64,000 nucleotides of DNA from a virus. Its lineage: Duplodnaviria; Caudoviricetes. Below, in pieces: positions 10,279 through 33,780 of the stretch. The stretch's first letter is position 1. Each line of letters opens with the position of its first letter. The DNA lies in the IMG/VR virus record IMGVR_UViG_3300017716_001697, positions 1-64,000 of that record; one strand, written 5' to 3'. The position numbers and the translations under genes are program-made. The notes under the pieces are model-generated. The model was not told where the DNA came from and did not search any database. It was given only the letters and a program-made list of their open reading frames with translations.

Positions 10279-10621
10279 TTCAACATTCGAGCTAACGCTG
10301 GCAACAGAGGAAGTTCGGGACAAGCGCCAAGGGCGTGTGGGAGAGTGGTTATTTGATGGGGCATAGTGTCGGCCGGCTCAAATCTAATACGGAGTTGTTA
10401 GAAGCCAAGCAGAGATTTATCATCAAGCTAGATCCGCAAGGATGACAAAAGGTTCCTGAGACGGGTTCAACTCCCGGATGCTCCACCAAATAACTACTTG
10501 TTACACCACCGTGATACAGCTTGCAACACAAACAGAACCTGGGAACTCTTGGCTTATAGGTTCGGGTTGTGGCAAAGATTAATGTTAGCATAGAACAGAA
10601 TCCCGGCTACGGAATGTTGAA
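10279..10621 (+). ncRNA. rnpB: RNase P RNA (type-A catalytic domain)
   Basis: P1, P2 (GCTAAC/GTTAGC), P3, CR-I GAGGAAGTTCGGG, P5 CAAGC/GCTTG, P6 GCCAAG/CTTGGC, P15-16 with GGT, CR-IV AGATTAAT, CR-V ACAGAATCCCGGCTA. Confidence 0.85.
10358..10488 (+). ncRNA. Ala-acceptor tRNA/tmRNA-like domain nested in the RNase P RNA
   Basis: GGGGCAT/ATGCTCC with G3-U70, ACCA, GAC-GGGTTCAACTCCC T arm. Confidence 0.7.
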
Positions 10622-10981: not shown

Positions 10982-11029
10982 GGGCCGCCTTAAGTTTCTA
11001 TTTGACTATATACCCAGTCCGGTCCACCA
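10982..11029 (+). ncRNA. 48-nt Ala-type minihelix RNA
   Basis: GGGCCG/CGGTCC with G3-U70 and ACCA. Confidence 0.45.
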
Positions 11030-11339: not shown

Positions 11340-11413
11340 GGGCTGCTTCATGCTTTCAAGTAGAGAATACTTGGGCCGTCTAACAGTCGGGTCGCGCCCG
11401 TCGCGGTCCACCA
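11340..11413 (+). ncRNA. tRNA-sized Ala-acceptor RNA with non-canonical arms
   Basis: GGGCTGC/GCGGTCC with G3-U70 and ACCA, just after a promoter. Confidence 0.55.
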
Positions 11414-11582
11414 TATAATAGTCTGTATACGAGAGAATAATTGCGCGGAACAGACTCCCTTTTTTAGTTGCAAATAGACTGTCATGCATGATACACTTCC
11501 GTAGTGCATGATCAACGTATACGACTACTTCGGGTATAGATCCAGGGAAGTGCAGCTAATTTTAATTTAACTTAAGGATAAC

Positions 11583-13472: not shown

Positions 13473-13648
13473 GGGGTGTAATGGTGAGTATAGCGGGTTC
13501 GATTCCCGTGTGGTCCACCATAAATTGTGTTGTCCTAGCGGTAATAGCTAGTTAAATGATGAAAGTCGGAAGCAATGCAATTTATAATGGGCCAGGGTTG
13601 GACCGTTCCTAGGACGCTCGACGGGTTCGATTCCCGCCCACTCCACCA
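13473..13648 (+). ncRNA. Pair of cross-pairing Ala-acceptor half-tRNAs
   Basis: Two T arm plus ACCA units whose acceptor strands pair crosswise; hairpin spacer. Confidence 0.6.
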
Positions 13649-13762
13649 ATGCGTACTCTAAATCTTCTGTAATTTTACAGACGATCAGGGCTGGTACACC
13701 GTTGTATTAAATCTACATTTATTGTATAATACACAATAGACCATGGGTACTTTAGTTTCTAA

Positions 13763-30052: not shown

Positions 30053-30526
30053 ATGAACAAGATATTCGCACTATCGATTGTTATAAGTTTATTGTGCCAT
30101 ATCGGTGTTGTTATATCTGCGATTACACCGCAAGAACCGATTAGTACTAGTGTTACAGCGCCAGAGAACCGAATGGCAATTAAGCTATTACCACCAGAGC
30201 AGTTAGCAACGATACGACCAGCATTTTTAAAATCTGATGAATATTATAAGCCGACGCACCATCCGTATAGCAAAGAAGGGATTTGTGAAGGCAAGGATAA
30301 GAATTACATCGGTATTGGCATGATGATTCAGCCCGGAACACGGTTGGTAATTAATGTGCCAGAGATGTATCCTGCGTATCGAGCAGGCATTCGGGTAAAT
30401 GATGTCATTGTGGACCCGTACGGTCCTGTAATTGACCGTGCCGGTTATATTGAATTCGGGGTAGAACGGGACAATGTTATATCTCGTGTACGAATCAAGG
30501 CAGAAAAGATATGTTATACTGGATAG
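30053..30526 (+). CDS. Membrane-anchored PDZ-like protein
   Basis: N-terminal hydrophobic segment; PAYRAGIRVNDVI. Confidence 0.55.
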   Translation: MNKIFALSIVISLLCHIGVVISAITPQEPISTSVTAPENRMAIKLLPPEQLATIRPAFLKSDEYYKPTHHPYSKEGICEGKDKNYIGIGMMIQPGTRLVINVPEMYPAYRAGIRVNDVIVDPYGPVIDRAGYIEFGVERDNVISRVRIKAEKICYTG

Positions 30527-30554
30527 TTGACACCTTAACGCTAAGTAGTATAAT
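30527..30554 (+). promoter_or_regulatory. sigma70 promoter of tmRNA
   Basis: TTGACA-N16-TATAAT. Confidence 0.75.
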
Positions 30555-30560
30555 AAAGGT

Positions 30561-30848
30561 ACTGTTGTAATCCCTTCGAAGCGAAGGCAGGCAAGACGCG
30601 GGTTCGAATCCCGCCAGGTCCACCAAAATCATATTCGAAAAATAAAATCCATAACACGTTATGGTGTGAGTATGATTCTGATGGGCCTGCTCCGGAAATC
30701 GATTGCGTGAGATAGTAGAGACGGCAACACGAGAGGCGATGGACGTAATCCAAGCAAAACTAGTAAATGCAAACGCAGATACATTCGCTCTTGTAGCCTA
30801 AGAAACTCAAAGCTGAGGTAGGACTTACCTTATAACCAAAACAACCAA
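30561..30848 (+). ncRNA. ssrA: Circularly permuted two-piece tmRNA
   Basis: Acceptor piece ends GACGCGGGTTCGAATCCCGCCAGGTCCACCA (30625); hairpin spacer; coding piece starts GGGCCTG (30683); tag ANADTFALVA* at 30769-30801. Confidence 0.92.
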
Positions 30849-30849
30849 T

Positions 30850-30872
30850 GGGGGCTTCGGCCCCTATTTTTA
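30850..30872 (+). terminator. Terminator after tmRNA
   Basis: GGGGC-TTCG-GCCCC plus T-run. Confidence 0.85.
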
Positions 30873-33704: not shown

Positions 33705-33780
33705 GCGCCTTTAGCTCAGTTGGTAGAGCAGCGGATTCTAAATCTGTAGGTCAGGGGTTCGAGTCCCCTATCGCGCACCA
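33705..33780 (+). tRNA. Amber-suppressor tRNA (CTA)
   Basis: GCGGA-TTCTAAA-TCTGT anticodon arm; canonical D and T arms; CCA; two acceptor mismatches. Confidence 0.8.

Follow-up and report, generated by a model that had tools for sequence, protein, structure and literature searches.

Transcripts of permuted tmRNA genes are cut in two by tRNA-processing enzymes (PMC11915505). Mycobacteriophage DS6A bears a tmRNA relative that consists of the tRNA-like domain only, and tests in E. coli with a similar molecule showed inhibition of tmRNA, perhaps through SmpB titration (PMC4131195, PMC11915505). In YrlA RNAs, which are tRNA-like Y RNAs of bacteria and phages (RF02553; PMC4201824), a T arm, an acceptor-like helix and a D-like segment follow one another, nested between other strands. 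The modules of the RNA described here, namely the tmRNA tRNA-like domain, the permuted gene order and the YrlA-like order of T arm, acceptor and D segment, are thus already known; their combination into the present architecture was not found described in Rfam 15 or in the literature searched.

We analyzed a window of 64,000 nucleotides from the start of an IMG/VR phage genome that measures 364,576 bp and has direct terminal repeats; a freshwater metagenome is the top DNA match for this stretch among public sequencing runs, and a look for RNA runs matching it found none listed. The window contains 43 tRNA genes and a permuted tmRNA at 30513–30870 (plus strand). The element under study, located at 13473–13648 on the plus strand, receives no call from ARAGORN or from Rfam at gathering score, its Rfam matches remaining below threshold at 15.1–17.2 bits against 47 and at 15.5 bits against 84. 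Our own structure descriptor finds a single copy in the 364-kb genome. The flanking ORFs have no match in Pfam or PHROGS, and a search anchored on the upstream 220-aa ORF returned no relatives. Genes for SmpB, AlaRS, a CCA-adding enzyme and Ro60 were looked for in the phage and none was found; the phage encodes RtcB.

The features of a tmRNA tRNA-like domain (a G3:U70 acceptor, A73-CCA, a TTCGA-type T arm and no anticodon arm) are present twice. Like permuted tmRNA (RF04321 and RF01850, the Caulobacter type, and the phage's own), the inner of the two acceptor/T-arm heads, in members with a long insert (type I), follows the order T arm, 3′ acceptor strand, ACCA, hairpin, YRAU and 5′ acceptor strand, with the intervening segment between CCA and the 5′ acceptor strand. 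Both RNAs also have G3:U70, A73, a GG-containing D-loop-like linker and a freely drifting intervening segment. Unlike permuted tmRNA, the element has no pseudoknots and no mRNA-like domain (resume codon, tag frame, stop): only 13-nt and 25-nt linkers lie between its helices, and ARAGORN makes no tmRNA call. The far ends of the pieces, which are ordinary helices in tmRNA, here build another complete acceptor/T-arm head, which ends in a CCA of its own.

DS6A and the mitochondrial and plastid tmRNAs that lack a CDS resemble the element in having an alanine-type tRNA-like domain without a coding part. However, DS6A-type RNAs have a single head, a domain built in cis or from one piece pair with one 5′ and one 3′ strand, whereas the element has two heads formed by strand exchange. 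The inner module repeats the YrlA order, with the acceptor-like helix closed by a loop in short-loop members (type II), but it lacks a Ro-binding stem and its enclosing strands are a true CCA-ended acceptor stem. Beyond this module order the likeness ends: there is no YrlA match in Rfam at E ≤ 10 and no TROVE domain in the 364-kb phage genome. The cloverleaf of tRNA (RF00005), with D and anticodon arms, is absent, in line with the lack of an ARAGORN or Rfam tRNA call.

Parts of the element

Two units, 13473–13520 and 13589–13648, were re-read from the window and match their earlier description. Unit 1 begins with the 5′ strand of the outer acceptor stem, GGGGTG (13473–13478, plus strand, as are all parts below), preceded by UUU, the expected RNase P site. 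This strand is partnered by 13639–13644, includes G3:U70 and covaries at positions 4–6 across 12 members. An unpaired U at position 7 and a D-loop-like linker 1 follow (13479–13492); the linker, 13 nt long with UGGU, carries a conserved AUGGUG, of which UGG is present in all members. T arm 1 (GCGGG/TTCGATT/CCCGT, 13493–13509), with a covarying stem and an invariant loop, is continuous with the inner acceptor 3′ strand. The unit closes with an unpaired G at position 66, the strand TGGTCC, A73 and CCA (13510–13520).

The 68-nt intervening hairpin (13521–13588), a presumed discarded spacer, is closed by TAAATTG(T)/(G)CAATTTA, as the original prediction described; its helix begins directly after ACCA, and UAAU precedes G+1. 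Unit 2 opens with the inner acceptor 5′ strand GGGCCA (13589–13594), which is partnered by 13511–13516 with G3:U70 and shows compensatory changes at positions 5 and 6 in L153, L137 and type II. Position 7 and the 25-nt linker 2 (13595–13620) comprise a D-loop-like GGUUGGA and a small hairpin (13604–13616) that covaries between type I and type II. T arm 2 (13621–13637) has a 4-bp stem, CGGG/CCCG, and a TTCGATT loop, with an extra G-C pair possible if an A is bulged. An unpaired C at position 66, the outer acceptor 3′ strand CACTCC, A73 and CCA complete the element (13638–13648); in relatives, a tRNA gene starts 8–10 nt further on. Neither unit contains an anticodon stem-loop, as originally noted, and this absence is conserved in homologues.

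Relatives and the crosswise fold

Pattern scans of viral and metagenome contigs, together with our own structure descriptor script, identified 11 further members, 12 with that of the window. The first loose pattern returned mostly adjacent ordinary tRNAs, which were filtered with ARAGORN; the descriptor yielded one new type II member (L050) along with ~25 chance matches in tRNA-rich loci and is therefore not specific. Eight members besides the window's are of type I, with a long insert (L092 (= L139), L124, L130, L131, L137, L148, L149 and L153). The remaining three are of type II (L068 (= L138), L125 and L050), in which the inner stem is closed by a 5-, 7- or 13-nt loop, so that the RNA as encoded is one chain; their inner head has no CCA, and the loops retain only AC. 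All members are located on the tRNA strand of phage tRNA arrays, often 5–10 nt from adjacent tRNAs, and the halves are ~90% conserved among contigs whose gene neighbors differ.

A search of 185,579 prokaryote genomes with one pattern gave no members and matched only bacterial tmRNAs. BLAST against cultured phages gave no full-length relative, only T-arm/acceptor matches of 27–33 nt; these turned out to belong to phage tmRNAs (Marzo) or to a cis-folded alanine mini gene in Roseobacter phage DSS3P8. T4 rnaC and rnaD were set aside as relatives, having one T arm each and not being alike. The DSS3P8 gene (L173:570–631; KT870145, about 11362–11423) belongs to a cultured phage and is missing from its annotation, in which a tRNA-Ala follows directly downstream. 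Of the alanine type and 62 nt long, this mini tRNA-like gene combines an acceptor paired in cis (GGGCCGG/CCGGTCC, with G3:U70) with a T arm and ACCA and lacks an anticodon arm. Comparable mini units folded in cis are present in the L119/L121/L123/L126–L128 group and in L120.

Further unusual sequences accompany some members. Two additional T-arm-like hairpins that other members lack, GGAG-TTCGATT-CTCC and GGG-TTCGA-CCC, lie in the type I insert of L130 (834–925) and give the impression of one more mini tRNA-like unit nested there. On the reverse strand of L125, just downstream of the type II element, lies an odd CCA-ended tRNA-like sequence that starts with GGGGGAAAG and ends with GGAACCC-ACCA. 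The gene just upstream of the type II element in L050 (865–950) and in L068 (5650–5748) ends GCGGG-TTCGAGT-CCCGC-TTTCCCC-ACCA. In L050 a matching start, GGGGAAA, gives an unusual tRNA-like RNA of ~86 nt with no ARAGORN call; in L068 the 5′ part is missing.

The prediction that the two half-tRNAs can only complete each other is correct as to pairing. The ends of each unit pair poorly in cis, as claimed, with G4×G followed by three wobbles in unit 1 and three mismatches at positions 4–6 in unit 2. Crosswise, each stem forms six standard pairs, G3:U70 among them, followed by A73 and CCA. The chance of six Watson–Crick pairs at the six informative positions, taking the window alone, is ~(1/4)^6 = 2e-4. 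Covariation of positions 4–6 in homologues had been set beforehand as a test, and the crosswise pairing proved to be kept by compensatory changes. Across the 12 members, positions 1–6 of the crosswise stems form standard pairs in 143 of 144 cells, the single exception being a U-U in L148, and positions 4–6 are paired in 71 of 72. Cis pairing reaches only 71% and 56%, and no member is cis-complementary. In the outer stem, position 4 varies between G-C and C-G, position 5 between U-A and A-U, and position 6 among G-C, A-U and U-A; in the inner stem, position 5 is C-G, U-A or U-G and position 6 is A-U or G-C. None of 20000 partner shuffles matches the observed pairing at positions 4–7. G1-C72, G2-C71, G3:U70 and A73 are invariant in both heads of all 12 members, and position 7:66 is usually mismatched in both stems of type I, limiting them to 6 bp.

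On one chain, the crosswise pairing is a nested fold in which everything else lies within the outer stem: T arm 1, an inner stem with ACCA and the hairpin at its tip, the small hairpin and T arm 2. Given a plain MAFFT alignment but not the model, RNAalifold returns the same nested fold, comprising the outer stem, T arm 1, the inner stem, the insert-closing helix, the small hairpin and T arm 2, with compensatory changes at 16 of 33 pairs. Single-sequence MFE folding of the window RNA does not return it, because in silico the T arms, being identical, pair together. We conclude that the crosswise fold is real and beyond chance.

Intervening hairpin and alternative readings

Type I inserts range from 32 to 141 nt and show an identity of 0.46 between members versus 0.44 for shuffles, while the halves average 88–90%. 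In L131 and L092, the halves are 97–100% identical and the inserts are unrelated. The conserved feature of the insert is its closing helix alone, maintained by compensatory changes, such as an A-U pair replaced by G-C when the near-identical L131 and L149 are compared. All 9 type I members have ACCA after the inner 3′ strand, and the order is inner-head ACCA, hairpin and then YRAU before GGG. An ATGAAA-18-TATAAT promoter-like motif inside the insert was judged incidental, since a transcript from it would start within the mature 5′ strand and relatives do not retain the hexamer.

The resemblance of this spacer to the intervening hairpin of the phage's permuted tmRNA holds better than originally stated. 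That tmRNA carries its intervening segment at 30626–30682, where it had been placed, with ACCA and a helix at one end and a helix, UGAU and then GGGCC at the other. The element shares ACCA, a closing helix that abuts it and YRAU ahead of G+1 with four true permuted tmRNA genes, those of the window phage, the L153 phage, Stenotrophomonas phage Marzo and a Luteimonas MAG. The last two (L174:470–600 for Marzo and L170:6380–6620 for the MAG) have the same design, running from ACCA and helix to helix, YRAU and GGGG, which suggests that Xanthomonadales-type hosts use two-piece tmRNA and hints at a host range of this type for the window phage.

Subtype tracks tmRNA form in 3/3 phages in which both are known (n = 3): the window phage and the 353-kb L153 phage combine type I with a permuted tmRNA, and in the L125 phage the type II element lies 5 nt downstream of a one-piece tmRNA. 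RNAcofold places the 48+60-nt dimer 7–12 kcal/mol below the two monomers and returns both crosswise acceptor stems in 5 of 9 members. Together, the retained ACCA, the drifting insert, the permuted-tmRNA design, the match between subtype and tmRNA form and the dimer energy incline us to the view that the type I hairpin is excised, leaving 48-nt and 60-nt pieces.

An RNA of ~176 nt that stays in one piece would have the same nested fold, with ACCA and the hairpin retained as an extension of the inner helix, a single free outer CCA end of the alanine type and an inner head that serves as a closed acceptor-helix mimic, as in YrlA. Type II (L068, L050 and L125), with loops of 5–13 nt, is encoded in this way, and pairing of A73 with U-1 and of A76 with U-4 could make the inner stem, a CC/AA internal loop and the insert helix into a nearly continuous rod. 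Yet ACCA is invariant in type I and missing from the type II loops; random-level drift of the insert beside halves that are 88–90% identical fits a spacer rather than a mature domain; and the design is identical to that of tmRNA intervening segments, whose removal is required for function. We regard this uncut RNA as a serious possibility that nonetheless falls short of being probable.

The remaining two readings dispense with the crosswise fold. That two independent cis-folded alanine minihelices, or decaying tRNA or tmRNA fragments, lie side by side and fit crosswise by coincidence of shared GGG/UCC ends is very improbable. Part of the crosswise fit is indeed automatic because positions 1–3 are identical in both units, and other phages (the L119 group, L120 and DSS3P8) do have single mini tRNA-like genes folded in cis. 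However, the informative positions 4–6 covary crosswise and are mostly mismatched in cis, and the conserved halves persist beside different gene neighbors without cis complementarity in any member; we reject the cis and pseudogene readings because covariation and RNAalifold support the crosswise nested fold. Barely credible, in our judgment, is an ordinary second permuted tmRNA, in which CCACTCC-ACCA would pair with GGGCTGG at 13688 past a 39-nt spacer, with the coding piece downstream. The cmscan alignments of 13621–13697 (beta_tmRNA, 15.5 bits, E 0.006; tmRNA_permuted, 17.2 bits) do use GGGCTGG, but their scores are far under gathering (84 and 47 bits, respectively) and the proposed pairing contains C4×C69. 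The tRNA gene that begins 8–10 nt past the outer ACCA in relatives means that there is no conserved third strand. Downstream of the element, the window sequence looks promoter-like by eye, although a promoter scan did not call a promoter there.

Possible processing, charging and role

We marginally favor, as the best overall explanation, a conserved phage RNA gene that encodes two domain-swapped heads and is processed, charged and put to use as follows. The gene would be transcribed within the tRNA array. In the fold that covariation shows, the unit 1 5′ strand, paired with the unit 2 3′ strand, stacks on T arm 2 as the outer head, and the unit 2 5′ strand, paired with the unit 1 3′ strand, stacks on T arm 1 as the inner head. 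The RNA thereby gains two tRNA-like domains of the tmRNA type. Each consists of an acceptor stem of 6 bp with G3:U70, A73, a T arm and a D-like linker that contains GG, and there is neither an anticodon arm nor a coding part. RNase P would cut before G13473 and G13589, and the 68-nt hairpin would be trimmed back to the CCA at 13520. The predicted product comprises the two RNAs of 48 and 60 nt, joined by two acceptor stems and bearing an alanine-type CCA end on each. Because a short, CCA-less loop closes the inner head of type II, a second free end is dispensable for the fold and perhaps also for function.

Host AlaRS may charge one or both ends, a possibility that follows from the fact that G3:U70 minihelices suffice for AlaRS. 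The alanine identity set is present on both heads, and the tRNA-Ala genes and the tmRNA of the phage share with the inner head the acceptor type GGGC.../...GGTCC-ACCA. That the type I RNA is actually cut in two in infected cells, with the pieces staying paired and both CCA ends alanylated, seems to us conceivable but doubtful. Were it so, this would be a natural bimolecular RNA with two activated amino acids on two tRNA-like heads, which could engage two SmpB, EF-Tu or ribosome partners simultaneously or donate alanine outside decoding.

As to role, our tentative suggestion is that the RNA acts as a bivalent stand-in for the tRNA-like domain of tmRNA, engaging SmpB, EF-Tu or AlaRS, by analogy with DS6A, the only experimental phage precedent for an alanine tRNA-like domain that has neither anticodon nor CDS. 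A role as alanine donor dedicated to a tRNA-dependent transferase is unlikely, and we give an equally low probability to a decoy for a host factor that reads acceptor/T-arm helices. An element that titrates SmpB would compete with the phage's own, seemingly functional tmRNA, which argues against plain SmpB depletion.

Other RNAs of related kinds lie in the same window. About 3 kb upstream of the element, 10279–10621 matches archaeal-type RNase P RNA weakly and at full length (27.8 bits, E 3e-6, below gathering), and within this stretch a tmRNA-like alanine element, GGGGCAT.../...ATGCTCC-ACCA, is nested at 10358–10488. Two more CCA-ended alanine-type acceptor RNAs of the form GGGC.../...GGTCC-ACCA, without normal arms, are found at 10982–11029 and 11340–11413, the latter preceded by a TTGACA/TATAAT-type promoter. 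Together with the element studied here, these two give the phage several anticodon-less alanine acceptors. At 33705–33780, ARAGORN calls a tRNA with a CUA anticodon (amber suppressor type), labeled tRNA-Pyl.

In tRNA, tmRNA, viral 3′ tRNA-like structures, YrlA and mascRNA, the known tRNA-like domains have one head each. Two alanine-type heads formed by acceptor-strand exchange, one of them encoded like a permuted tmRNA, represent a new wiring of these modules and a conserved phage RNA gene class that has escaped the standard finders of tRNA and tmRNA. With its predicted 48 + 60 nt, the element offers a compact system for the action of RNase P, 3′-end trimming and AlaRS on permuted or bimolecular substrates. 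It bears on whether one RNA can carry two aminoacyl groups and on how giant phages use several anticodon-less alanine acceptors beside their own tmRNA and RNase P-like RNA.
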